DNA from: Escherichia coli | GTDB lineage: Bacteria; Pseudomonadota; Gammaproteobacteria; Enterobacterales; Enterobacteriaceae | Direction: 5' to 3' (one strand) | Length of the DNA stretch: 64,000 bases | Assembly (NCBI RefSeq): GCF_003018115.1 | Contig: NZ_CP027457.1 | Shown: positions 6,721 through 30,045 of the stretch, piece by piece | Numbering within the stretch: position 1 is the first letter of the stretch | How the letters are laid out: every line of letters begins with the position of its first letter | Translations under genes and position numbers: made by a program | Notes under the pieces: model-generated | Database searches by the model: none | Told to the model about the DNA's origin: nothing | Seen by the model: only the letters and a program-made list of their open reading frames with translations

Positions 6721-6838
6721 GGTTTCTCTTTCCTGTGGACCGATGCAAGATTTTCGGCCTGGAAAGCAAAAACTTTATGAAAAGGTGTAACCCGCCATCC
6801 ATGGAAAAACCAGGCGCTGGTTATCAGATACTAAAAAG

Positions 6839-15923: not shown

Positions 15924-17486
15924 ATGAAACCAGAAGATTTCCGCGCCAGTACCCAACGTCCGTTCACCGGGGAAGAGTATCTGAAAAGCCTGCAGGATGG
16001 TCGCGAGATCTATATCTACGGCGAGAGAGTGAAAGACGTCACCACTCATCCGGCATTTCGTAATGCGGCAGCGTCTGTTGCCCAACTGTACGACGCGCTA
16101 CACAAACCGGAGATGCAGGACTCTCTGTGTTGGAACACCGACACCGGCAGCGGCGGCTATACCCATAAATTCTTCCGCGTGGCGAAAAGTGCCGACGACC
16201 TGCGCCAGCAACGCGATGCCATCGCTGAGTGGTCACGCCTGAGCTATGGCTGGATGGGCCGTACCCCAGACTACAAAGCTGCTTTCGGTTGCGCACTGGG
16301 CGCGAATCCGGGCTTTTACGGTCAGTTCGAGCAGAACGCCCGTAACTGGTATACCCGTATTCAGGAAACTGGCCTCTACTTTAACCACGCGATTGTTAAC
16401 CCACCGATCGATCGTCATTTGCCGACCGATAAAGTGAAAGACGTTTACATCAAGCTGGAAAAAGAGACTGACGCCGGGATTATCGTCAGCGGTGCGAAAG
16501 TGGTTGCCACCAACTCGGCGCTGACTCACTACAACATGATTGGTTTCGGCTCGGCACAAGTGATGGGCGAAAACCCGGACTTCGCACTGATGTTCGTTGC
16601 GCCAATGGATGCCGATGGCGTGAAATTAATCTCCCGCGCCTCTTATGAGATGGTCGCGGGTGCTACCGGCTCGCCGTACGACTACCCGCTCTCCAGCCGC
16701 TTCGATGAGAACGATGCGATCCTGGTGATGGATAACGTACTGATCCCTTGGGAAAACGTGCTGATCTACCGCGATTTCGATCGCTGCCGTCGCTGGACGA
16801 TGGAAGGCGGTTTTGCCCGTATGTATCCGCTGCAAGCCTGTGTGCGCCTGGCAGTGAAACTCGACTTCATCACGGCACTGCTGAAAAAATCACTCGAATG
16901 TACCGGCACCCTGGAGTTCCGTGGTGTGCAGGCCGATCTCGGTGAAGTGGTGGCGTGGCGCAACACCTTCTGGGCATTGAGTGACTCGATGTGTTCAGAA
17001 GCGACGCCGTGGGTCAACGGGGCTTATTTACCGGATCATGCTGCACTGCAAACCTATCGCGTACTGGCACCAATGGCCTACGCGAAGATCAAAAACATTA
17101 TCGAACGCAACGTTACCAGTGGCCTGATCTATCTCCCTTCCAGTGCCCGTGACCTGAACAATCCGCAGATCGACCAGTATCTGGCGAAGTATGTGCGCGG
17201 TTCGAACGGTATGGATCACGTCCAGCGCATCAAGATCCTCAAACTGATGTGGGATGCCATTGGCAGCGAATTTGGTGGTCGTCACGAGCTGTATGAAATC
17301 AACTACTCCGGTAGCCAGGATGAGATTCGCCTGCAATGTCTGCGCCAGGCACAAAGCTCCGGCAATATGGACAAGATGATGGCGATGGTTGATCGCTGCC
17401 TGTCGGAATACGACCAGAACGGCTGGACTGTGCCGCACCTGCACAACAACGACGATATCAACATGCTGGATAAGCTGCTGAAATAA
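15924..17486 (+). CDS. hpaB: 4-hydroxyphenylacetate 3-monooxygenase, oxygenase component (FADH2-dependent)
   Basis: 520-aa ORF MKPEDFRASTQRPFTGEEYLKSLQDGREIYIYGERV...; matches HpaB as recalled. Confidence 0.9.
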   Translation: MKPEDFRASTQRPFTGEEYLKSLQDGREIYIYGERVKDVTTHPAFRNAAASVAQLYDALHKPEMQDSLCWNTDTGSGGYTHKFFRVAKSADDLRQQRDAIAEWSRLSYGWMGRTPDYKAAFGCALGANPGFYGQFEQNARNWYTRIQETGLYFNHAIVNPPIDRHLPTDKVKDVYIKLEKETDAGIIVSGAKVVATNSALTHYNMIGFGSAQVMGENPDFALMFVAPMDADGVKLISRASYEMVAGATGSPYDYPLSSRFDENDAILVMDNVLIPWENVLIYRDFDRCRRWTMEGGFARMYPLQACVRLAVKLDFITALLKKSLECTGTLEFRGVQADLGEVVAWRNTFWALSDSMCSEATPWVNGAYLPDHAALQTYRVLAPMAYAKIKNIIERNVTSGLIYLPSSARDLNNPQIDQYLAKYVRGSNGMDHVQRIKILKLMWDAIGSEFGGRHELYEINYSGSQDEIRLQCLRQAQSSGNMDKMMAMVDRCLSEYDQNGWTVPHLHNNDDINMLDKLLK

Positions 17487-17503
17487 CGCAGCAGGAGGTT
17501 AAG

Positions 17504-18016
17504 ATGCAATTAGATGAACAACGCCTGCGCTTTCGTGACGCGATGGCCAGCCTGTCGGCAGCGGTAAATATTATCACCACCGAGGGCGACGCCGGACAAT
17601 GCGGGATTACGGCAACGGCCGTCTGCTCGGTCACGGATACCCCTCCGTCGCTGATGGTGTGCATTAACGCCAACAGTGCGATGAACCCGGTTTTTCAGGG
17701 CAACGGCAAGTTGTGCGTCAACGTCCTCAACCATGAGCAGGAACTGATGGCGCGCCACTTCGCGGGCATGACGGGCATGGCGATGGAAGAGCGTTTTAGC
17801 CTCTCGTGCTGGCAAAAAGGTCCGCTGGCGCAGCCGGTGCTAAAAGGTTCGCTGGCCAGTCTTGAAGGTGAGATCCGCGATGTGCAGGCGATTGGCACAC
17901 ATCTGGTGTATCTGGTGGAGATTAAAAACATCATCCTCAGTGCAGAAGGTCACGGACTTATTTACTTTAAACGCCGTTTCCATCCGGTGATGCTGGAAAT
18001 GGAAGCTGCGATTTAA
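17504..18016 (+). CDS. hpaC: 4-hydroxyphenylacetate 3-monooxygenase, NADH:flavin reductase component
   Basis: 170-aa ORF 17 nt after hpaB; flavin reductase-like domain. Confidence 0.9.
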   Translation: MQLDEQRLRFRDAMASLSAAVNIITTEGDAGQCGITATAVCSVTDTPPSLMVCINANSAMNPVFQGNGKLCVNVLNHEQELMARHFAGMTGMAMEERFSLSCWQKGPLAQPVLKGSLASLEGEIRDVQAIGTHLVYLVEIKNIILSAEGHGLIYFKRRFHPVMLEMEAAI

Positions 18017-18022
18017 GCTCCA

Positions 18023-18056
18023 GCCCCTTCACGCATTCGTCGAAGGGGCATTTTTA
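18023..18056 (+). terminator. Rho-independent terminator after hpaC
   Basis: GCCCCTTC-acgcattcgtc-GAAGGGGC followed by ATTTTT. Confidence 0.6.
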
Positions 18057-18101
18057 TTGTGATCTCAATCACATATCCACCCGACGAATAATTCTTGCCC
18101 A

Positions 18102-18129
18102 ACCGCTCACCGCCATTCCTGACCGCTTA
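18102..18129. promoter_or_regulatory. Direct repeats ACCGCTCA ... ACCGCTTA (12-nt spacer) upstream of btsT; candidate BtsR (YehT) LytTR-type binding site
   Basis: Repeats read directly about 280 bp upstream of the btsT start; assignment rests on the recalled BtsR motif ACC[GA]CT[CT]A. Confidence 0.45.
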
Positions 18130-18408
18130 CATCCCTAAAATAACCACTCAGTTATTTACCTTACTTTACGCGCGCGTATCTCTGGCAACATCACTGCAGG
18201 ATAGCGGTCAATTTACCTCCTCAAACGCAACGCAAACCTAGAACGGCTTCGGCCTATGATTAACAAATTACTCTATGGATTTTGGTTTGCAGGAAGGCAG
18301 CAAGTGAGTGAATCCCCGGGAGCTTACAACAGTAAGTGACAGGGGTGAACGAACGCAGCTGCCGCACCTGTAAGCCAAAAGACGACGAGTAAAATGCCAG
18401 GTTTTACT

Positions 18409-20559
18409 ATGGATACGAAAAAACTATTCAAGCACATACCCTGGGTGATTCTCGGAATCATCGGTGCATTCTGCCTCGCGGTAGTTGCATTACGTCGGGG
18501 GGAGCACGTCAGCGCCCTGTGGATCGTGGTCGCCTCTGTGTCGGTGTATCTGGTGGCGTATCGCTACTACAGTCTGTACATCGCCCAGAAGGTGATGAAA
18601 CTCGACCCCACGCGCGCGACGCCTGCGGTTATTAACAACGACGGTCTGAACTACGTTCCGACCAACCGTTACGTGTTGTTTGGTCACCACTTCGCCGCTA
18701 TCGCCGGTGCTGGTCCGCTGGTTGGTCCGGTTCTCGCCGCGCAGATGGGCTACCTGCCTGGCACGCTGTGGCTGCTGGCGGGGGTAGTGCTGGCCGGTGC
18801 GGTACAGGACTTTATGGTGCTGTTTATCTCCTCTCGCCGTAACGGCGCATCTCTCGGTGAGATGATCAAAGAAGAGATGGGACCAGTACCGGGGACTATC
18901 GCGCTGTTTGGCTGTTTCTTAATCATGATCATCATCCTCGCCGTTCTGGCGCTGATTGTGGTTAAAGCCCTGGCCGAAAGTCCGTGGGGTGTCTTCACCG
19001 TTTGCTCAACCGTACCAATTGCGCTGTTTATGGGTATCTATATGCGCTTTATTCGTCCGGGGCGTGTGGGTGAAGTCTCTGTCATTGGTATCGTGCTGCT
19101 GGTTGCCTCTATCTACTTCGGTGGCGTGATTGCTCACGATCCGTACTGGGGTCCGGCACTGACCTTTAAAGACACCACCATTACCTTCGCGCTGATTGGC
19201 TATGCGTTTGTTTCCGCACTGCTGCCGGTGTGGCTGATCCTCGCACCACGCGACTATCTGGCAACCTTCCTGAAAATCGGCGTTATCGTCGGCCTGGCGC
19301 TGGGTATCGTGGTGCTGAACCCGGAACTGAAAATGCCTGCGATGACCCAGTACATTGACGGTACTGGCCCGCTGTGGAAAGGCGCTCTGTTCCCGTTCCT
19401 GTTCATCACCATCGCCTGTGGTGCGGTATCTGGCTTCCACGCACTGATCTCTTCCGGTACGACGCCGAAACTGCTGGCTAATGAAACCGACGCGCGTTTC
19501 ATCGGTTATGGCGCAATGCTGATGGAGTCCTTCGTGGCGATTATGGCGCTGGTTGCTGCGTCCATCATCGAACCAGGTCTTTACTTCGCGATGAATACCC
19601 CGCCTGCTGGCCTTGGCATCACCATGCCTAACCTGCATGAAATGGGTGGCGAGAACGCGCCGATCATCATGGCGCAGTTGAAAGACGTTACCGCACACGC
19701 GGCGGCGACCGTCAGCTCCTGGGGCTTCGTGATTTCGCCAGAGCAGATCCTGCAAACCGCGAAAGACATTGGTGAGCCTTCTGTCCTGAACCGTGCAGGT
19801 GGTGCGCCGACGCTGGCGGTAGGTATCGCTCACGTGTTCCACAAAGTGCTGCCGATGGCTGACATGGGCTTCTGGTATCACTTCGGTATTCTGTTCGAAG
19901 CACTGTTCATCCTGACCGCGCTGGATGCGGGTACCCGTTCTGGCCGCTTTATGTTGCAAGACCTGCTGGGTAACTTCATCCCGTTCCTGAAAAAAACCGA
20001 CTCTCTGGTTGCCGGTATCATCGGTACTGCGGGCTGTGTGGGTCTGTGGGGCTACCTGCTGTATCAGGGCGTGGTCGATCCGCTGGGCGGCGTTAAGAGC
20101 CTGTGGCCGTTGTTCGGTATCTCCAACCAGATGCTGGCAGCCGTGGCGCTGGTACTGGGTACCGTTGTGCTGATTAAGATGAAGCGCACCCAATACATCT
20201 GGGTAACTGTTGTTCCGGCTGTATGGCTGCTTATCTGCACCACCTGGGCACTGGGTCTGAAACTGTTCAGCACCAACCCGCAGATGGAAGGCTTCTTCTA
20301 CATGGCAAGCCAGTACAAAGAGAAGATTGCTAACGGTACTGACCTGACGGCGCAGCAGATTGCCAACATGAACCACATCGTTGTGAACAACTACACCAAC
20401 GCAGGTCTGAGTATTCTGTTCCTGATTGTGGTGTACAGCATCATCTTCTACGGTTTCAAAACCTGGCTGAAGGTGCGTAACAGCGACAAACGTACTGACA
20501 AAGAAACACCGTACGTTCCAATCCCGGAAGGCGGCGTGAAGATCTCTTCGCACCACTAA
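18409..20559 (+). CDS. btsT: Pyruvate/H+ symporter, CstA family
   Basis: Translation from MDTKKLFKHIPWVILGIIG... (716 aa), many TM segments; start placed at the second Met of the ORF-track entry. Confidence 0.9.
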   Translation: MDTKKLFKHIPWVILGIIGAFCLAVVALRRGEHVSALWIVVASVSVYLVAYRYYSLYIAQKVMKLDPTRATPAVINNDGLNYVPTNRYVLFGHHFAAIAGAGPLVGPVLAAQMGYLPGTLWLLAGVVLAGAVQDFMVLFISSRRNGASLGEMIKEEMGPVPGTIALFGCFLIMIIILAVLALIVVKALAESPWGVFTVCSTVPIALFMGIYMRFIRPGRVGEVSVIGIVLLVASIYFGGVIAHDPYWGPALTFKDTTITFALIGYAFVSALLPVWLILAPRDYLATFLKIGVIVGLALGIVVLNPELKMPAMTQYIDGTGPLWKGALFPFLFITIACGAVSGFHALISSGTTPKLLANETDARFIGYGAMLMESFVAIMALVAASIIEPGLYFAMNTPPAGLGITMPNLHEMGGENAPIIMAQLKDVTAHAAATVSSWGFVISPEQILQTAKDIGEPSVLNRAGGAPTLAVGIAHVFHKVLPMADMGFWYHFGILFEALFILTALDAGTRSGRFMLQDLLGNFIPFLKKTDSLVAGIIGTAGCVGLWGYLLYQGVVDPLGGVKSLWPLFGISNQMLAAVALVLGTVVLIKMKRTQYIWVTVVPAVWLLICTTWALGLKLFSTNPQMEGFFYMASQYKEKIANGTDLTAQQIANMNHIVVNNYTNAGLSILFLIVVYSIIFYGFKTWLKVRNSDKRTDKETPYVPIPEGGVKISSHH

Positions 20560-21824: not shown

Positions 21825-22739
21825 TCACTCAAAATAGTCCATATCCAGTTTCGGCACCTTCAACAAACGTGAAGAAACCCCTACTTCGTTTTCGATCATT
21901 AAGTGCACCAGGCGTTCCCCATCAACCAACACCATACCCTCGACGGATTGAGCAAAGTCACGCGCCTGAGACGTAAATCCAGAAGTGGTAATAAACACCC
22001 CACGTTTCGCCTTTTGCCCAGCCAGTGCGCCGTAAAATGCCTGTAATTCTGGCCTGCCTACAGTGTTCTGCCAACGTTTTGCCTGAACATAAACTTTCTC
22101 CAGGCCAAGTTTATCAAGCGATATCACACCATCGATGCCACCATCTCCAGTACCGCCAACACGCTGCAAATCATCACGGTGGCCGCCATACCCCAGGCGA
22201 TGCAAAACATCCAGAACAATGACTTCAAAGCGCGAAGGAGAAACCTGCAATAAGTTTTCCAGAACCTCATCAGCCACCGCATCACTAAGCTCTTTTAGCG
22301 CCTGATCTAACCGATCGTCCGGGCTGCTCTTTGCAAGTTCTTCATGATCGGGAGAGTCGGCTTTCGGATCTAAATCGACGGCATCCGGCCGTGACTTAAG
22401 TTTGACATTCACAAAATCGAAGGCCAGATGGTTCGTCTCCTGCTCCGTCATTGGCTGGGGATGAGACGCAACCCAGTCAAAACCCGCAGGAGTCAGGCAC
22501 CATTTGCCACGCGACAAACTTTGCGACAACCCGGCACGTTTTAAACGGTCATGCGCCCAGCCTGCACGATTTTTATAAACAAGTTGTCCGCTGGTAATGA
22601 CTTTCGCTCGCTGGCTGTCATCCAGTCCTAATGCATCCGCGGCAGCCTCATGAACATCACGCGCGGCTGCACCTTCCGGTTTTGTCGCCAGATAACGCAG
22701 AACAGGTTCAATAAATTTGTCATAGGTAGGAACCGTCAT
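21825..22739 (-). CDS. mrr: Mrr type IV restriction endonuclease (restricts methylated adenine/cytosine DNA)
   Basis: 304-aa ORF MTVPTYDKFIEPVLRYLATKPEG... with C-terminal Mrr-cat PD-(D/E)xK region; matches Mrr as recalled. Confidence 0.9.
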   Translation of the reverse strand: MTVPTYDKFIEPVLRYLATKPEGAAARDVHEAAADALGLDDSQRAKVITSGQLVYKNRAGWAHDRLKRAGLSQSLSRGKWCLTPAGFDWVASHPQPMTEQETNHLAFDFVNVKLKSRPDAVDLDPKADSPDHEELAKSSPDDRLDQALKELSDAVADEVLENLLQVSPSRFEVIVLDVLHRLGYGGHRDDLQRVGGTGDGGIDGVISLDKLGLEKVYVQAKRWQNTVGRPELQAFYGALAGQKAKRGVFITTSGFTSQARDFAQSVEGMVLVDGERLVHLMIENEVGVSSRLLKVPKLDMDYFE

Positions 22740-22926
22740 AGTACATCCTTGCAGAATCAGGTAGATGTTTTTCGGCTACTATAACACTACCAAAATAGAC
22801 GAACACGTTAGAAATGAGTCAGTTGCTGTGACCGTGGTCATTGCCCGGAAAGGTACAGAAAGCTAAGATAAGGCGTTATGGGCCTTAAATATTTGGACAG
22901 GCCCACACAGCAATGGATTAATAACA

Positions 22927-25900
22927 ATGATGAATAAATCCAATTTTGAATTCCTGAAGGGCGTCAACGACTTTACCTATGCCATCGCCTGTGCGGCGGA
23001 AAATAACTACCCGGATGATCCCAACACGACGCTGATTAAAATGCGTATGTTTGGCGAAGCCACAGCGAAACATCTTGGTCTGTTACTCAACATCCCCCCT
23101 TGTGAGAATCAACACGATCTCCTGCGCGAACTCGGCAAAATCGCCTTCGTTGATGACAACATTCTCTCTGTATTCCACAAATTACGCCGCATTGGTAACC
23201 AGGCGGTGCACGAATATCATAACGATCTCGACGATGCCCAGATGTGCCTGCGACTCGGGTTTCGCCTGGCTGTCTGGTACTACCGTCTGGTCACTAAAGA
23301 TTATGACTTCCCGGTGCCGGTGTTTGTGTTGCCGGAACGTGGTGAAAACCTCTATCACCAGGAAGTGCTGACGCTAAAACAACAGCTTGAACAGCAGGTG
23401 CGAGAAAAAGCGCAGAGTCAGGCAGAAGTCGAAGCACAACAGCAGAAGCTGGTTGCCCTGAACGGCTATATCGCCATTCTGGAAGGCAAGCAGCAGGAAA
23501 CCGAAGCGCAAACCCAGGCTCGCCTTGCTGCACTGGAAGCACAGCTCGCCGAGAAGAACGCGGAACTAGCCAAGCAGACCGAACAGGAACGTAAGGCTTA
23601 CCACAAAGAAATTACCGATCAGGCCATCAAGCGTACACTCAATCTTAGCGAAGAAGAGAGCCGCTTCCTGATTGACGCGCAACTGCGTAAAGCAGGCTGG
23701 CAGGCCGATAGCAAAACCCTGCGCTTCTCCAAAGGCGCGCGCCCGGAACCCGGCGTCAATAAAGCCATTGCCGAATGGCCGACCGGGAAAGATGAAACGG
23801 GTAATCAGGGCTTTGCGGATTATGTGCTGTTTGTCGGTCTCAAACCCATCGCGGTGGTAGAAGCGAAACGTAAAAATATCGACGTTCCCGGCAAGCTCAA
23901 TGAGTCGTATCGCTACAGTAAATGTTTCGATAATGGCTTCCTGCGGGAAACCTTGCTTGAGCACTACTCACCGGATGAAGTGCATGAAGCGGTGCCGGAG
24001 TATGAAACCAGTTGGCAGGACACCAGCGGCCAACAACGGTTTAAAATCCCCTTCTGCTACTCGACCAACGGGCGCGAATACCGCGCAGCGATGAAGACTA
24101 AAAGTGGCATCTGGTATCGCGACGTGCGTGATACCCGCAATATGTCGAAAGCCTTACCCGAGTGGCATCGCCCGGAAGAGTTGCTGGAAATGCTCGGCAG
24201 CGAACCGCAAAAACAGAATCAGTGGTTTGCCGATAATCCCGGCATGAGCGAGCTGGGCCTGCGTTATTATCAGGAAGATGCCGTCCGCGCGGTTGAAAAG
24301 GCAATCGTCAAGGGTCAACAAGAGATCCTGCTGGCGATGGCGACCGGTACCGGTAAAACCCGCACCGCAATTGCCATGATGTTCCGCCTGATCCAGTCCC
24401 AGCGTTTTAAACGCATTCTCTTCCTTGTGGATCGCCGTTCTCTTGGCGAGCAGGCGCTGGGGGCGTTTGAAGATACGCGTATTAACGGCGACACTTTCAA
24501 CAGCATTTTCGACATTAAAGGGCTGACGGATAAATTCCCCGAAGACAGCACCAAAATTCACGTTGCCACCGTACAGTCGCTGGTGAAACGCACCCTGCAA
24601 TCGGATGAACCGATGCCGGTAGCCCGTTACGACTGTATCGTCGTCGATGAAGCGCATCGCGGCTATATTCTCGATAAAGAGCAGACCGAAGGCGAACTGC
24701 AGTTCCGCAGCCAACTGGATTACGTTTCTGCCTACCGTCGTATTCTCGATCACTTCGATGCGGTAAAAATTGCTCTCACCGCCACCCCGGCGCTGCATAC
24801 GGTGCAGATTTTCGGCGAGCCGGTTTACCGTTACACCTACCGTACCGCGGTTATCGACGGTTTTCTGATCGACCAGGATCCGCCGATTCAGATCACCACC
24901 CGCAACGCACAGGAAGGGGTTTATCTCTCCAAAGGCGAGCAGGTTGAGCGCATCAGCCCGCAGGGGGAAGTGATCAACGACACCCTGGAAGACGATCAGG
25001 ATTTTGAGGTCGCCGACTTTAACCGTGGCCTGGTGATCCCGGCGTTTAACCGCGCCGTCTGTAACGAACTCACCAACTACCTTGACCCGACCGGGTTACA
25101 AAAAACGCTGGTCTTCTGCGTCACCAATGCCCATGCCGATATGGTGGTGGAAGAGTTGCGTACCGCGTTCAAGAAAAAGTATCCGCAACTGGAGCACGAC
25201 GCGATCATCAAGATCACCGGTGATGCCGATAAAGACGCGCGCAAAGTGCAGACCATGATCACCCGCTTCAATAAAGAGCGGCTGCCCAATATTGTCGTAA
25301 CCGTCGACCTGCTGACGACCGGCGTCGATATTCCGTCGATCTGTAATATCGTGTTCCTGCGTAAAGTACGCAGCCGTATTCTGTACGAGCAGATGAAAGG
25401 CCGCGCCACGCGCTTGTGCCCGGACGTGAATAAAACCAGCTTTAAGATTTTCGACTGCGTCGATATCTACAGCACGCTGGAGAGCGTCGATACCATGCGT
25501 CCGGTGGTGGTGCGCCCGAAGGTGGAACTGCAAACGCTGGTCAACGAAATTACCGATTCGGAAACCTATAAAATCACCGAAGCGGATGGCCGTAGCTTTG
25601 CCGAGCACAGCCATGAACAACTGGTGGCGAAGCTCCAGCGCATCATCGGCCTGGCCACGTTTAACCGTGACCGCAGCGAAACGATAGATAAACAGGTGCG
25701 TCGTCTGGATGAGCTATGCCAGGACGCGGCGGGCGTGAACTTTAACGGCTTCGCCTCGCGCCTGCGGGAAAAAGGGCCGCACTGGAGCGCCGAAGTCTTT
25801 AACAAACTGCCTGGCTTTATCGCCCGTCTGGAAAAGCTGAAAACCGACATCAACAACCTGAATGATGCGCCGATCTTCCTCGATATCGACGATGAAGTGG

Positions 25901-26439
25901 TGAGTGTAAAATCGCTGTACGGTGATTACGACACGCCGCAGGATTTCCTCGAAGCCTTTGACTCGCTGGTGCAACGTTCCCCGAACGCGCAACCAGCATT
26001 GCAGGCGGTGATTAATCGCCCGCGCGATCTCACCCGTAAAGGGCTGGTCGAGCTACAGGAGTGGTTTGACCGCCAGCACTTTGAGGAATCTTCCCTGCGC
26101 AAAGCGTGGAAAGAGACGCGCAATGAAGATATCGCCGCCCGGCTGATTGGACATATTCGCCGCGCTGCGGTGGGCGATGCGCTGAAACCGTTTGAGGAAC
26201 GTGTCGATCACGCGCTGACGCGCATTAAGGGCGAAAACGACTGGAGCAGCGAGCAATTAAGCTGGCTCGATCGTTTAGCGCAGGCGCTGAAAGAGAAAGT
26301 GGTGCTCGACGACGATGTCTTCAAAACCGGCAACTTCCACCGTCGCGGCGGGAAGGCGATGCTGCAAAGAACCTTTGACGATAATCTCGACAGCCTGCTC
26401 GATAAATTCAGCGATTATATCTGGGACGAGCTGGCCTGA
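22927..26439 (+). CDS. hsdR: Type I restriction enzyme R subunit (family IA), SF2 helicase/translocase plus nuclease
   Basis: 1170-aa ORF MMNKSNFEFLKG...; motifs MATGTGKT (Walker A) and VVDEAHRG (DEAH); matches EcoKI-type HsdR as recalled. Confidence 0.95.
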   Translation: MMNKSNFEFLKGVNDFTYAIACAAENNYPDDPNTTLIKMRMFGEATAKHLGLLLNIPPCENQHDLLRELGKIAFVDDNILSVFHKLRRIGNQAVHEYHNDLDDAQMCLRLGFRLAVWYYRLVTKDYDFPVPVFVLPERGENLYHQEVLTLKQQLEQQVREKAQSQAEVEAQQQKLVALNGYIAILEGKQQETEAQTQARLAALEAQLAEKNAELAKQTEQERKAYHKEITDQAIKRTLNLSEEESRFLIDAQLRKAGWQADSKTLRFSKGARPEPGVNKAIAEWPTGKDETGNQGFADYVLFVGLKPIAVVEAKRKNIDVPGKLNESYRYSKCFDNGFLRETLLEHYSPDEVHEAVPEYETSWQDTSGQQRFKIPFCYSTNGREYRAAMKTKSGIWYRDVRDTRNMSKALPEWHRPEELLEMLGSEPQKQNQWFADNPGMSELGLRYYQEDAVRAVEKAIVKGQQEILLAMATGTGKTRTAIAMMFRLIQSQRFKRILFLVDRRSLGEQALGAFEDTRINGDTFNSIFDIKGLTDKFPEDSTKIHVATVQSLVKRTLQSDEPMPVARYDCIVVDEAHRGYILDKEQTEGELQFRSQLDYVSAYRRILDHFDAVKIALTATPALHTVQIFGEPVYRYTYRTAVIDGFLIDQDPPIQITTRNAQEGVYLSKGEQVERISPQGEVINDTLEDDQDFEVADFNRGLVIPAFNRAVCNELTNYLDPTGLQKTLVFCVTNAHADMVVEELRTAFKKKYPQLEHDAIIKITGDADKDARKVQTMITRFNKERLPNIVVTVDLLTTGVDIPSICNIVFLRKVRSRILYEQMKGRATRLCPDVNKTSFKIFDCVDIYSTLESVDTMRPVVVRPKVELQTLVNEITDSETYKITEADGRSFAEHSHEQLVAKLQRIIGLATFNRDRSETIDKQVRRLDELCQDAAGVNFNGFASRLREKGPHWSAEVFNKLPGFIARLEKLKTDINNLNDAPIFLDIDDEVVSVKSLYGDYDTPQDFLEAFDSLVQRSPNAQPALQAVINRPRDLTRKGLVELQEWFDRQHFEESSLRKAWKETRNEDIAARLIGHIRRAAVGDALKPFEERVDHALTRIKGENDWSSEQLSWLDRLAQALKEKVVLDDDVFKTGNFHRRGGKAMLQRTFDDNLDSLLDKFSDYIWDELA

Positions 26440-26515
26440 CACGGTATCATTCCCGGCAATTTCTTCTTCTGCGGCCCAATAAATTTGGGCCGCTGCTTAA
26501 TTTACGGAACACCCA

Positions 26516-28105
26516 ATGAACAATAACGATCTGGTCGCGAAGCTGTGGAAGCTGTGCGACAACCTGCGCGATGGCGGCGTTTCCTATCAAAACTACGTCA
26601 ATGAACTCGCCTCGCTGCTGTTTTTGAAAATGTGTAAAGAGACCGGGCAGGAAGCGGAATACCTGCCGGAAGGCTACCGCTGGGATGACCTGAAATCCCG
26701 CATCGGCCAGGATCAATTGCAGTTCTACCGTAACCTGCTGGTACATCTGGGCGCCGACAATCAAAAGCTGGTGCAGGCGGTGTTCCAGAACGTCAACACC
26801 ACCATTACCCAGCCAAAACAGTTGACCGAACTGGTCACAAATATGGATTCGCTGGACTGGTATAACGGTGCGCACGGTAAGTCGCGCGATGACTTCGGCG
26901 ATATGTACGAAGGGCTGTTGCAGAAGAACGCCAACGAAACCAAGTCTGGCGCGGGCCAGTACTTCACCCCGCGTCCGCTGATTAAAACCATTATTCATCT
27001 GCTGAAACCGCAGCCGCGTGAAGTGGTGCAGGACCCGGCAGCAGGTACGGCGGGCTTTTTGATTGAAGCCGACCGCTACGTTAAGTCGCAGACCAATGAT
27101 CTGGACGACCTTGATGGCGATACGCAGGATTTCCAGATCCACCGCGCGTTTATCGGCCTCGAACTGGTGCCCGGCACCCGTCGTCTGGCGCTGATGAACT
27201 GCCTGCTGCACGATATTGAAGGCAACCTCGACCACGGCGGCGCAATCCGTCTGGGCAACACTCTGGGTAGCGACGGCGAAAACCTGCCGAAGGCGCATAT
27301 TGTCGCCACTAACCCGCCGTTTGGCAGCGCCGCAGGCACCAACATTACCCGCACCTTTGTTCACCCGACCAGCAATAAACAGTTGTGCTTTATGCAGCAT
27401 ATTATCGAAACGCTGCACCCCGGCGGTCGTGCGGCGGTGGTGGTGCCGGATAACGTGCTGTTTGAAGGCGGCAAAGGCACCGACATTCGTCGTGACCTGA
27501 TGGATAAGTGTCATCTGCACACTATTCTGCGTCTGCCGACCGGTATTTTTTACGCGCAGGGCGTGAAAACCAACGTGCTGTTCTTTACCAAAGGCACGGT
27601 GGCGAACCCGAATCAGGATAAGAACTGCACCGATGATGTGTGGGTGTACGACCTGCGTACCAATATGCCGAGCTTCGGCAAGCGCACGCCGTTTACTGAC
27701 GAACATCTGCAGCCGTTTGAGCGGGTGTATGGCGAAGATCCCCACGGCTTAAGCCCGCGCACTGAAGGCGACTGGGAATTCGACGCAGAAAAAAGTGAAA
27801 TTGCCGACAGCGAAGAGAACAAAAACACCGACCAGCATCTGGCTACCAGCCGCTGGCGCAAGTTCAGCCGCGAGTGGATCCGCACCGCGAAATCCGATTC
27901 GCTGGATATCTCCTGGCTGAAAGATAAAGACAGCATTGACGCCGACAACCTGCCGGAGCCGGATGTATTAGCGGCAGAAGCGATGGGCGAGCTGGTACAG
28001 GCGCTGGGCGAACTGGATGCGTTGATGCGTGAACTGGGGGCGAGCGATGAGGCGGATGCACAGCGTCAGTTGCTGGAAGAAGCGTTTGGTGGGGTGAAGG
28101 AATGA
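26516..28105 (+). CDS. hsdM: Type I restriction-modification M subunit (N6-adenine methyltransferase)
   Basis: 529-aa ORF; catalytic NPPF motif and AdoMet-binding region (DPAAGTAGFL). Confidence 0.95.
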   Translation: MNNNDLVAKLWKLCDNLRDGGVSYQNYVNELASLLFLKMCKETGQEAEYLPEGYRWDDLKSRIGQDQLQFYRNLLVHLGADNQKLVQAVFQNVNTTITQPKQLTELVTNMDSLDWYNGAHGKSRDDFGDMYEGLLQKNANETKSGAGQYFTPRPLIKTIIHLLKPQPREVVQDPAAGTAGFLIEADRYVKSQTNDLDDLDGDTQDFQIHRAFIGLELVPGTRRLALMNCLLHDIEGNLDHGGAIRLGNTLGSDGENLPKAHIVATNPPFGSAAGTNITRTFVHPTSNKQLCFMQHIIETLHPGGRAAVVVPDNVLFEGGKGTDIRRDLMDKCHLHTILRLPTGIFYAQGVKTNVLFFTKGTVANPNQDKNCTDDVWVYDLRTNMPSFGKRTPFTDEHLQPFERVYGEDPHGLSPRTEGDWEFDAEKSEIADSEENKNTDQHLATSRWRKFSREWIRTAKSDSLDISWLKDKDSIDADNLPEPDVLAAEAMGELVQALGELDALMRELGASDEADAQRQLLEEAFGGVKE

Positions 28106-29430
28106 GTGCGGGGAAATTGCCAGAGGGGTGGGTTGAAACTCAATTAGAAAATATCGTTGATATTTTAGACTCAATGCGTGTCCCGGTTAATAATTCTGAG
28201 AGACAATCACGCATTGCAGGAAAAAAAGAAAATGAACTTTATCCCTATTTTGGTGCTACCGGTGAAGTCGGTAAAATTGATGATTATATTTTTGATGAAG
28301 AACTTGTTGCATTAGGTGAAGATGGTGTTCCTTTTTTTGATGGGCACAAAAATAAGGCTTATATGCTGTATGGTAAAACGTGGGTGAATAATCATGCTCA
28401 TGTAATAAGAGCTATCTCTGGACTAAGCCATAACAAGTATTTATGCCATTATCTTAACCAATTCGACTATCATGATTATGTAAACGGCGGGACCAGGCTT
28501 AAACTTACACAAGCGAATATGAGAAAACTACCTGTTAGTTTAGCGCCTCTCGCCGAACAAAAAATCATCGCAGAAAAACTCGATACGCTGCTGGCGCAGG
28601 TAGAGAGCACCAAAGCACGTCTTGAGCAAATCCCACAAATCCTGAAACGTTTTCGTCAGGCGGTGTTGGCTGCTGTTGTTAATGGAAAATTATCAAAGAA
28701 CACGAAGCAATGGGAAATATACTTATTAAAAAATCTTTGTACTAGCATTTCAGATGGCGATCATCAGGCTCCTCCAAAATCAGAAACAGGAGTGCCTTTC
28801 CTCGTAATCTCCGATGTTAATAAAGGGGTGATTGATTTTGATAATGTAACCAGATGGGTGCCTGAATCTTACTACCAATCGCTAAAAGAAATTAGAAAAC
28901 CATGCCAATATGATATTTTATATACAGTTACAGGTTCTTATGGAATACCTGTAATTGTTAACGACAATAAACCATTTTGTTTCCAGCGACATATTGCCAT
29001 CATCAAGCCAAACAGAAATTTAATTGATCATAGATTCTTAGCTTTCTATTTAGAATCACCACAAATTCTCAAACATGCAAGTGATGTTGCTACTGGGACC
29101 GCACAAAAAACAGTATCGCTGTCGAGTCTCCGAAATTTTGAGATCTCTGTTCCCCCTTTAAAAGAACAACACGAAATCGTTCGTCGCGTCGAGCAACTCT
29201 TCGCCTACGCCGACACTATTGAAAAACAGGTCAACAACGCCCTGGCCCGCGTCAACAACCTGACGCAATCCATTCTGGCAAAAGCGTTCCGTGGTGAACT
29301 CACCGCCCAGTGGCGGGCCGAAAACCCGGAATTGATCAGCGGAGAAAACAGCGCCGCCGCGTTGCTGGAGAAAATCAAAGCTGAACGCGCAGCCAGCGGG
29401 GGTAAAAAAGCCTCGCGTAAAAAATCCTGA
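28102..29430 (+). CDS. hsdS: Type I restriction-modification S (specificity) subunit, family IA, with two target-recognition domains unlike EcoKI
   Basis: 442-aa ORF overlapping the hsdM stop (ATGA). Conserved N-terminus MSAGKLPEGWV, central LAEQKIIAEKLDTLLAQVESTKAR... and C-terminal EIVRRVEQLFAYADTIEKQV... repeats match IA-family HsdS as recalled; the two TRD-coding stretches are markedly AT-rich. Confidence 0.9.
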   Translation: MSAGKLPEGWVETQLENIVDILDSMRVPVNNSERQSRIAGKKENELYPYFGATGEVGKIDDYIFDEELVALGEDGVPFFDGHKNKAYMLYGKTWVNNHAHVIRAISGLSHNKYLCHYLNQFDYHDYVNGGTRLKLTQANMRKLPVSLAPLAEQKIIAEKLDTLLAQVESTKARLEQIPQILKRFRQAVLAAVVNGKLSKNTKQWEIYLLKNLCTSISDGDHQAPPKSETGVPFLVISDVNKGVIDFDNVTRWVPESYYQSLKEIRKPCQYDILYTVTGSYGIPVIVNDNKPFCFQRHIAIIKPNRNLIDHRFLAFYLESPQILKHASDVATGTAQKTVSLSSLRNFEISVPPLKEQHEIVRRVEQLFAYADTIEKQVNNALARVNNLTQSILAKAFRGELTAQWRAENPELISGENSAAALLEKIKAERAASGGKKASRKKS

Positions 29431-29442
29431 ACATTATTTTCT

Positions 29443-29467
29443 GGCGCACCTTTCCGGTGCGCTTTTA
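29443..29467 (+). terminator. Terminator hairpin after hsdS
   Basis: GGCGCACC-tttcc-GGTGCGC followed by TTTTAATT. Confidence 0.55.
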
Positions 29468-29564
29468 ATTATTTCACGCCAATCATAATTCACGCAAATA
29501 TATTTAAATCACTCCAGAAATTGCCCATTTTATTCTATTTTTAGCTGGACTTTCCCTGTATTTA

Positions 29565-29580
29565 CTGATGATATATCCAG
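29565..29580. promoter_or_regulatory. LexA (SOS) box CTG-N10-CAG upstream of symE
   Basis: CTGATGATATATCCAG read directly, with an overlapping second CTGTATTTACTG half-site; symE is known to be SOS-induced. Confidence 0.5.
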
Positions 29581-29584
29581 GTAT

Positions 29585-29665
29585 TTAGCGCGGTGCGGAT
29601 GTGCGCCAACACACCCGCACCGCTCATCACAATCACTATTTATGGAGAATAGTAATCATGACTGA
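29585..29665 (-). ncRNA. symR: Approximate position of SymR antisense sRNA (type I antitoxin) opposite the symE 5' UTR/start codon
   Basis: Placed by established knowledge that SymR is transcribed antisense across the symE translation-initiation region; a 9-bp-stem hairpin GCGGTGCGG...CCGCACCGC (29590..29623) is visible. Ends are not determinable from sequence alone. Confidence 0.4.
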
Positions 29666-29999
29666 CACGCATTCTATTGCACAACCGTTCGAAGCAGAAG
29701 TCTCCCCGGCAAATAACCGTCAATTAACCGTGAGTTATGCGAGCCGCTACCCGGATTACAGCCGTATTCCCGCCATCACCCTGAAAGGTCAGTGGCTGGA
29801 AGCCGCCGGTTTTGCCACCGGCACGGCGGTAGATGTCAAAGTGATGGAAGACTGTATTGTCCTCACCGCCCAACCCGCCGCCGCCGAAGAGAGCGAACTG
29901 ATGCAGTCACTGCGCCAGGTGTGCAAACTGTCGGCGCGTAAACAAAAGCAGGTGCAGGAGTTCATTGGGATGATTGCGGGTAAACAGAAAGTCGCCTGA
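29658..29999 (+). CDS. symE: SOS-induced toxin SymE (AbrB/MazE-fold, type I TA system)
   Basis: Translation from [52 protein letters not shown]... (113 aa); start set at the internal Met with GGAGAA upstream, by recall of SymE. Confidence 0.85.
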
Positions 30000-30045
30000 T
30001 ACATTGACCCGGTAGCGCCAGTGCTACCGGGTATTATTCGCCGCG

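Follow-up and report, generated by a model that had tools for sequence, protein, structure and literature searches.

A probable three-box BtsR operator between a CRP-type palindrome and a predicted extended −10 element at the btsT promoter of Escherichia coli

The gene btsT (yjiY) is the single target activated by BtsR (YehT), a protein with a receiver and a LytTR domain that works with BtsS, the sensor of extracellular pyruvate; BtsS/BtsR is reported to be the predominant LytS/LytTR system in the gamma-proteobacteria. Further layers of control have been described: btsT is repressed by LeuO, controlled post-transcriptionally by CsrA, influenced by the YpdAB system and subject to cAMP-CRP, its expression being abolished in a crp mutant. 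BtsR binding and the BtsS/BtsR- and pyruvate-dependent induction of the gene come from literature on the K-12 promoter only. What, then, does the operator look like in a strain where the hpa genes stand upstream of btsT? The window analysed here, by which we mean the whole stretch of 64,000 nucleotides of E. coli DNA, carries btsT in this context; btsS and btsR lie elsewhere on the chromosome, outside these 64 kb. A first-pass annotation had assigned to BtsR two direct repeats with a 12-nt spacer at 18102-18129, about 280 bp upstream of btsT, and had taken the hpa island to have entered at a point further upstream, sparing the promoter. Are these the repeats to which BtsR binds? Does the operator extend beyond two repeats? 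And where does the strain-specific DNA end? The reading we favour, with a probability of roughly 80%, is that positions 18102-18150 form a three-box BtsR operator which, once the regulator is activated by BtsS, switches on btsT, with a CRP site upstream and an extended −10 element downstream (Table 1).

Table 1. Elements of the btsT control region, in window coordinates
Element	Sequence or extent	Position	Strand	Remark
hpaBC terminator-type hairpin	GCCCCUUC...GAAGGGGC, then a T-rich run	18023-18049	+	putative function
cAMP-CRP-type palindrome	TGTGAtctcaaTCACA	18058-18073		perfect half-sites; putative binding site
Box M1	ACCGCTCA	18102-18109	+	distal third BtsR-type box; putative BtsR occupancy
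Box M2	ACCGCTTA	18122-18129	+	upstream member of the published BtsR repeat pair
Box M3	ACCACTCA	18143-18150	+	promoter-proximal half of the published BtsR direct repeat
Predicted extended −10	TGgCAACAT	18183-18191 (hexamer 18186-18191)	+	phylogenetic footprint
Leader hairpin	GGC-UUCG-GCC	18245-18254	+	minimum-free-energy fold
ERIC/IRU-type repeat in the btsT 5' leader	139 bp	18255-18393	+	ERIC primer matches, hairpin
btsT (yjiY), pyruvate/H+ symporter CDS	MDTKK... (translation)	18409-20559	+	RefSeq annotation

The two repeats were read at exactly the positions given by the first-pass annotation, and its distance holds as well, the end of M2 being 280 bp and the start of M1 307 bp from the ATG. 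A search with the degenerate octamer ACCRCTYA finds exact copies at 18102, 18122 and 18143, the last of which, box M3, begins 13 nt past M2 and was absent from that annotation. The operator region reads cccaACCGCTCAccgccattcctgACCGCTTAcatccctaaaataACCACTCAgtta. Its spacers measure 12 nt between M1 and M2 (18110-18121, CCGCCATTCCTG) and 13 nt between M2 and M3 (18130-18142), which places the box starts 20 and 21 bp apart, about two helical turns each. Single octamers of this kind are common enough, with 11 copies on both strands of the 64-kb window against 5.8 expected, but same-strand phasing at 20-21 bp is seen only for these three. A phased pair was found in 0 of 400 first-order Markov simulations of the window, and the analytic chance expectation per window is 0.001 phased pairs and about 2e-7 triples.

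What connects this array to BtsR is its identity with DNA used in binding work. The K-12 oligonucleotide 'yjiY YehT bs' of the Jung laboratory (Behr et al. 2016, PMC4847170) is CCTTTGCCGCTCAACCGCAAAACTGACCGCTTACATCCCTAAAATAACCACTCAGTTA, with the layout GCCGCTCA-12-ACCGCTTA-13-ACCACTCA, and the window is 100% identical to it over positions 18119-18154. Yamanaka et al. (2014), quoting Kraxenberger et al. (2012), give the YehT site as a direct repeat with a 13-bp spacer, and the literature describes the YehT/BtsR site as having two repeats. Only the M2-M3 spacer has a length of 13 bp, that between M1 and M2 being 12 nt, so the published pair is M2+M3 (18122-18150). The consensus, reportedly ACC[G/A]CT[C/T]A and variable only at positions 4 and 7, leads to the same pair, because M2 and M3 differ from each other at exactly these two positions and the K-12 form of M1 is left out, its G at position 1 presumably being excluded. 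The comparison with the published yjiY promoter thus upholds the first-pass annotation in recognising the BtsR operator region of btsT, and corrects it in the choice of repeats: of the pair M1+M2, only M2 belongs to the published site. The location agrees too, with btsT annotated immediately downstream and the array at the same place in orthologous loci. The finding re-identifies the published BtsR operator of btsT, a system already known.

Is the third box a peculiarity of this strain? To answer this, 83 btsT upstream regions, drawn from 80 species-representative Enterobacterales genomes and the E. coli alleles, were scanned for the best three-box set with periods of 19-22 bp, allowing mismatches and using shuffled sequences as controls. 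Arrays with at most one mismatch in total were observed in 70 of the 83 regions, and the best array in shuffled sequences never fell below five mismatches. The spacing is just as constant: periods of 20/20 (40 regions) and 20/21 (31) together account for 71 of the 83. M2 is the best conserved box, with 74 perfect copies among the 83 regions, followed by M3 with 62 and M1 with 55, so that M1 is imperfect in 28. The information content calculated per box is partly circular, as the boxes had been placed by motif match; a motif-independent MAFFT alignment gives as conserved blocks only the CRP palindrome, M1, M2, M3 and about 18183-18191. The cores of the boxes are 8 nt long, and the base at position −1 is semi-conserved. 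On this comparative evidence, the real and conserved operator architecture is one of three boxes. In some loci, Proteus species included, an extra ACCRCTYA box, making four, seems to separate M1 from the CRP site (L052, at −203, L031, L071, L072 and L074), and in these the CRP site is only 24 bp upstream of the first box.

The palindrome upstream of the array matches TGTGA-N6-TCACA perfectly and is kept in all four E. coli upstream contexts despite their differing flanks. Its distance to the boxes is also kept among species. With a CRP-like site defined by 8 or more matches to the 10 half-site bases, 60 of 74 species loci have one at exactly 44 bp upstream of M1 and another 7 have one at 43 bp, and no control offset reaches 8 matches. 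Downstream of the array, the footprint of the putative extended −10 element consists of A18187 and T18191, conserved in at least 95% of loci, and of T18183, G18184 and A18190, conserved in at least 80%. In most loci the hexamer of this TGnCAnnAT block stands 35 or 34 nt past M3. The result is a fixed order of CRP palindrome (18058-18073), 28 bp, M1, 12, M2, 12-13, M3, 35 bp and extended −10. In Proteus loci the TG is missing, but the hexamer is TATTAT or TATGAT; these near-consensus hexamers look compensatory, the pattern expected of an extended −10. Transcription is predicted to start near A18198, a position that may be off by several bp, and the centres of the elements would then be at about −51.5 (M3), −72.5 (M2), −92.5 (M1) and −132.5 (CRP). 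At the last of these positions, CRP would be at an unusually great distance for touching RNA polymerase directly.

Which other promoter could serve here? A scan of 17950-18450 for a strict sigma-70 −35/−10 pair found none, and because no good −35 accompanies the extended −10, the promoter would be activator-dependent. The pair TTTACC (18155-18160)/TATCTC (18177-18182) was discarded since TATCTC is poorly conserved and it is TGnCAnnAT, 9 bp further downstream, that keeps its sequence and a fixed distance. A sigma-54 promoter, TGGCAACATCACTGCA (TGGCA-N7-TGCA, 18183-18198), was rejected on two grounds: its −12-like TGCA is not conserved across species, and BtsR, with receiver and LytTR domains only, is not an enhancer-binding protein. 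A candidate CsrA site, CAGGATAGC (18197-18205), is not conserved either: Salmonella, Klebsiella and the majority of the other genera have GCA in place of its GGA. In the spacer that immediately precedes the predicted extended −10, position 18179 is T in hpa-type alleles and A in K-12, O157 and R32 (GTATCTC versus GTAACTC).

How close does the strain-variable DNA come to these elements? The gene hpaC ends at 18016 and is followed by a terminator-type hairpin, the left boundary of the btsT control region. The folding energy of this hairpin is −18 kcal/mol (z = −4.0; none of 200 shuffled sequences folds as stably), and a consensus terminator scan of 17950-18450 gave no match because the loop is too long for the rule. 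The stem CCCCTTC...GAAGGGG and its T-run also occur, with another loop, in strain R32_14_1F (L002, about 1480-1520), there after an unrelated amino-acid deaminase gene, so that one and the same stem stands at the end of two unlike upstream gene sets. That the island left the promoter intact is right in so far as all elements are present; the boundary itself is not where the first-pass annotation put it, as homology to K-12 breaks inside M1. In a BLAST comparison, this homology is lost at 6781, towards tsr, and picked up again at 18103. From the CRP half-site to M1, the window and K-12 have essentially unrelated sequences of equal length. The segment between CRP and M2 (18076-18121) is allele-specific and a mosaic in E. 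coli (L085, L001, L003); strain 317 (L085), for instance, combines a K-12 flank with the window-type spacer. Such combinations of flank and spacer imply recombination breakpoints at or inside the operator. By these alignments, the variable strain segment beside btsT runs past the end of hpaC and into the operator at M1.

Among 5,426 complete E. coli genomes, the upstream allele is of the window type in 2,254, of the K-12 type in 2,633 (including 589 of a sub-variant) and of the O157 type in 362. The window-type allele can occur without hpa, as in R32_14_1F with its amino-acid deaminase gene. A comparison of neighbours (window 16780-18260 against L007-L011, L019, L023, L032, L033, L044, L046, L048 and L052) shows that the genes immediately preceding btsT are hpaBC in Klebsiella, Raoultella, Enterobacter, Pseudocitrobacter and one Citrobacter, and that tsr takes this place in Salmonella, most Citrobacter and Kosakonia. 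Since hpaBC stands beside btsT in other genera, the difference may go back to an insertion or to a loss in K-12-like lineages. Judged from this distribution, the adjacency of hpa and btsT is old or repeatedly transferred and is not specific to E. coli. The other side of the locus is variable as well: downstream of btsT-yjiX-yjiA, at about 21825-30000, the annotation of L086 shows mrr, hsdRMS, symE and GmrSD/DUF262, that is, the variable restriction ('immigration control') region. In UTI89, an ERIC fragment lies between hsdM and hsdR (L088, 12139-12211).

The leader between promoter and gene differs from that of K-12 as well. The ATG is taken from the RefSeq annotation of a genome that is 100% identical to the window over 17900-18500; a mechanical ORF start at 18394 was dismissed, as both the translation and RefSeq give 18409. 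Upstream of it is an ERIC/IRU-type segment that stands where K-12, O157 and R32 have the 16 bp AACTATTAATCAATAC. It matches the reverse complement of ERIC1R at 20 of 22 bases and ERIC2 at 19 of 22, and its predicted fold, at −66.9 kcal/mol (z = −6.7), is a long hairpin with imperfect pairing, on which Rfam gives only a weak, sub-threshold match to V_AS5. With its core, its imperfect palindrome and its multi-copy intergenic spread, this insertion, and not the BtsR boxes, resembles ERIC/IRU elements, which measure about 127 bp. The ends given for the leader copy are approximate, because what the further copies have in common with it is limited to the central 56-73 bp. E. coli genomes contain a median of 9 copies of the segment, and among the matches listed none lies under an annotated feature. 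A copy at least 95% identical to the one in the leader is present in about 2,060 genomes; the hpaC-btsT stretch 17900-18500 is covered in full by 2,058 genomes, a matching number, so these are presumably the btsT-leader copies, which would put ERIC in the btsT leader of about 2,060 of the 5,426 genomes (about 38%). The insertion also occurs in E. albertii (L005) and, in diverged form, in Citrobacter portucalensis (L022), where tsr is the upstream neighbour. The distance of about 280 bp between boxes and btsT is due to this element, the K-12 boxes being 123 bp closer to the ATG. Directly before the ERIC segment, the tetraloop-type hairpin of Table 1 shows no variation among the E. coli alleles and partial conservation in other genera.

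Could the array be something other than an operator of BtsR, or be used in another way? Chance similarity could appeal to the 11 lone octamers in the window, but given that no simulated window contained even a phased pair, that triples are expected so rarely and that the three boxes are kept across species, it is next to inconceivable. Hardly more plausible is the binding of some other regulator to the repeats (YpdB/PyrR or LeuO), or their origin in a dispersed repeat element. LeuO and YpdAB do affect btsT expression, yet PyjiY DNA is the no-binding control for YpdB-D53E, and the boxes are specific to BtsR, because its paralogue YpdB does not bind the same promoter DNA. The YpdB motif GGCATTTCAT occurs in 18000-18410 only as one match with two mismatches, on the opposite strand and away from the boxes. 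Nor would a dispersed element behave in this way: the window has no second such array, and orthologous loci have theirs at the corresponding place in the promoter. The first-pass assignment, in which the functional site is M1+M2 with its 12-nt spacer, is improbable for other reasons. Both of these octamers match the consensus and are conserved, and 12 nt falls within the LytTR range of 11-13; against this, the published spacer of 13 bp is unique to M2-M3, M1 is GCCGCTCA in K-12, the strain in which the site was mapped, the variable positions 4 and 7 of the consensus are the two M2-M3 differences, and of the three boxes M3 has the shortest distance, a constant 35 bp, to the −10 element.

The harder question is whether only M2+M3 function, M1 being either a relic without function or a side effect of local duplication. 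M1 may be dispensable, since K-12 works with an imperfect copy and the literature gives two repeats. The K-12 allele is indeed fully inducible with its mismatched M1, the two-repeat site is what the literature describes, and 28 of the 83 regions compared have an imperfect M1. On the other hand, M1 holds its 20-bp phase across many genera although neither the spacer nor the upstream flank is conserved; its core CCGCTCA does not vary among E. coli alleles in which both flanks have been exchanged; the CRP site keeps a fixed distance from it; and the binding oligonucleotide of the Jung laboratory was designed with M1 included. The support for a functional M1 is purely evolutionary in kind, phase and core being retained as the flanks change. 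We judge a two-box operator to be a possibility to keep in mind, though the less likely one, and regard M1 as probably occupied by BtsR.

How could the three-box operator work? Phosphorylated BtsR (BtsR-P) would bind the phased boxes cooperatively, as YpdB does on its two sites; M3 and M2 would be occupied, M1 probably as well, all from the same helical face. The bound protein could then recruit or stabilise RNA polymerase at the weak extended −10 promoter. cAMP-CRP would be needed from its fixed upstream site, where it may bend the DNA or help BtsR.

What does this mean for the comparison of strains? Three conserved boxes, held between a CRP site on one side and an extended −10 on the other, describe the operator best, and the refinements to the known system are modest: the conservation of three boxes, the fixed CRP and −10 geometry, the weak M1 of K-12 and the ERIC leader in about 38% of genomes. 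A more speculative proposal, which we advance tentatively and do not expect to be the likelier outcome, is that M1 is a functional third box and that the natural E. coli promoter classes differ in the threshold, cooperativity or cell-to-cell heterogeneity of btsT induction. Were this so, the class with the weakened M1 (GCCGCTCA) would number about 2,633 of the 5,426 genomes and the classes with a perfect M1 about 2,254 (window type) plus 362 (O157 type). The ERIC hairpin in the 5' leader could in addition change the stability or translation of btsT mRNA. The accessible quantitative work, all on the K-12 promoter, might then fail to represent about half of the species. UTI89 (UPEC), the non-K-12 strain in BtsSR work, was assayed with a K-12 reporter fusion, and it has the tsr-btsT arrangement without hpa; in the accessible literature we found no experiment on an allele with perfect M1 and ERIC. 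As K-12 has a degenerate M1 and no ERIC in its leader, K-12 reporter data may not transfer to hpa-positive strains.

The closest known system is the K-12 yjiY promoter itself (Kraxenberger et al. 2012, J Bacteriol 194:4272; Behr et al. 2016, PMC4847170), which has M2, M3, the 13-bp spacer and btsT in common with the window, and the CRP palindrome at an equal distance. It differs in M1 (GCCGCTCA versus the perfect ACCGCTCA), in the M1-M2 spacer (ACCGCAAAACTG versus CCGCCATTCCTG), in its upstream neighbour (tsr versus hpaC), in one SNP at 18179 and in having no ERIC, which gives the window leader a net 123 bp more. The operator of yhjX offers a comparison within the same pyruvate-sensing network. 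It is bound by the paralogous LytTR regulator YpdB (PyrR) and consists of two GGCATTTCAT direct repeats with sequential, cooperative 'AB-BA' binding (Behr et al. 2016, PMC4847170). Both operators stand upstream of one transporter gene and are made of direct repeats that are phased and lie on the same strand; the box sequence is another one, there is no cross-binding, and two boxes are present at yhjX as against three at btsT. LytTR operators in general have two repeats of 9-11 nt, direct or inverted, with 11-13 nt between them, and are typically found just upstream of a weak core promoter. With its 8-nt cores and spacers of 12 and 13 nt, the btsT array has this architecture, including the direct-repeat arrangement of AgrA P2/P3, ComE, PlnC/D and VirR, where repeats of about 9-11 nt are 11-13 nt apart, although no consensus is common to the members of the family. 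What sets btsT apart from them is a third phased box, beyond the minimum of two, and a CRP site at a fixed distance.
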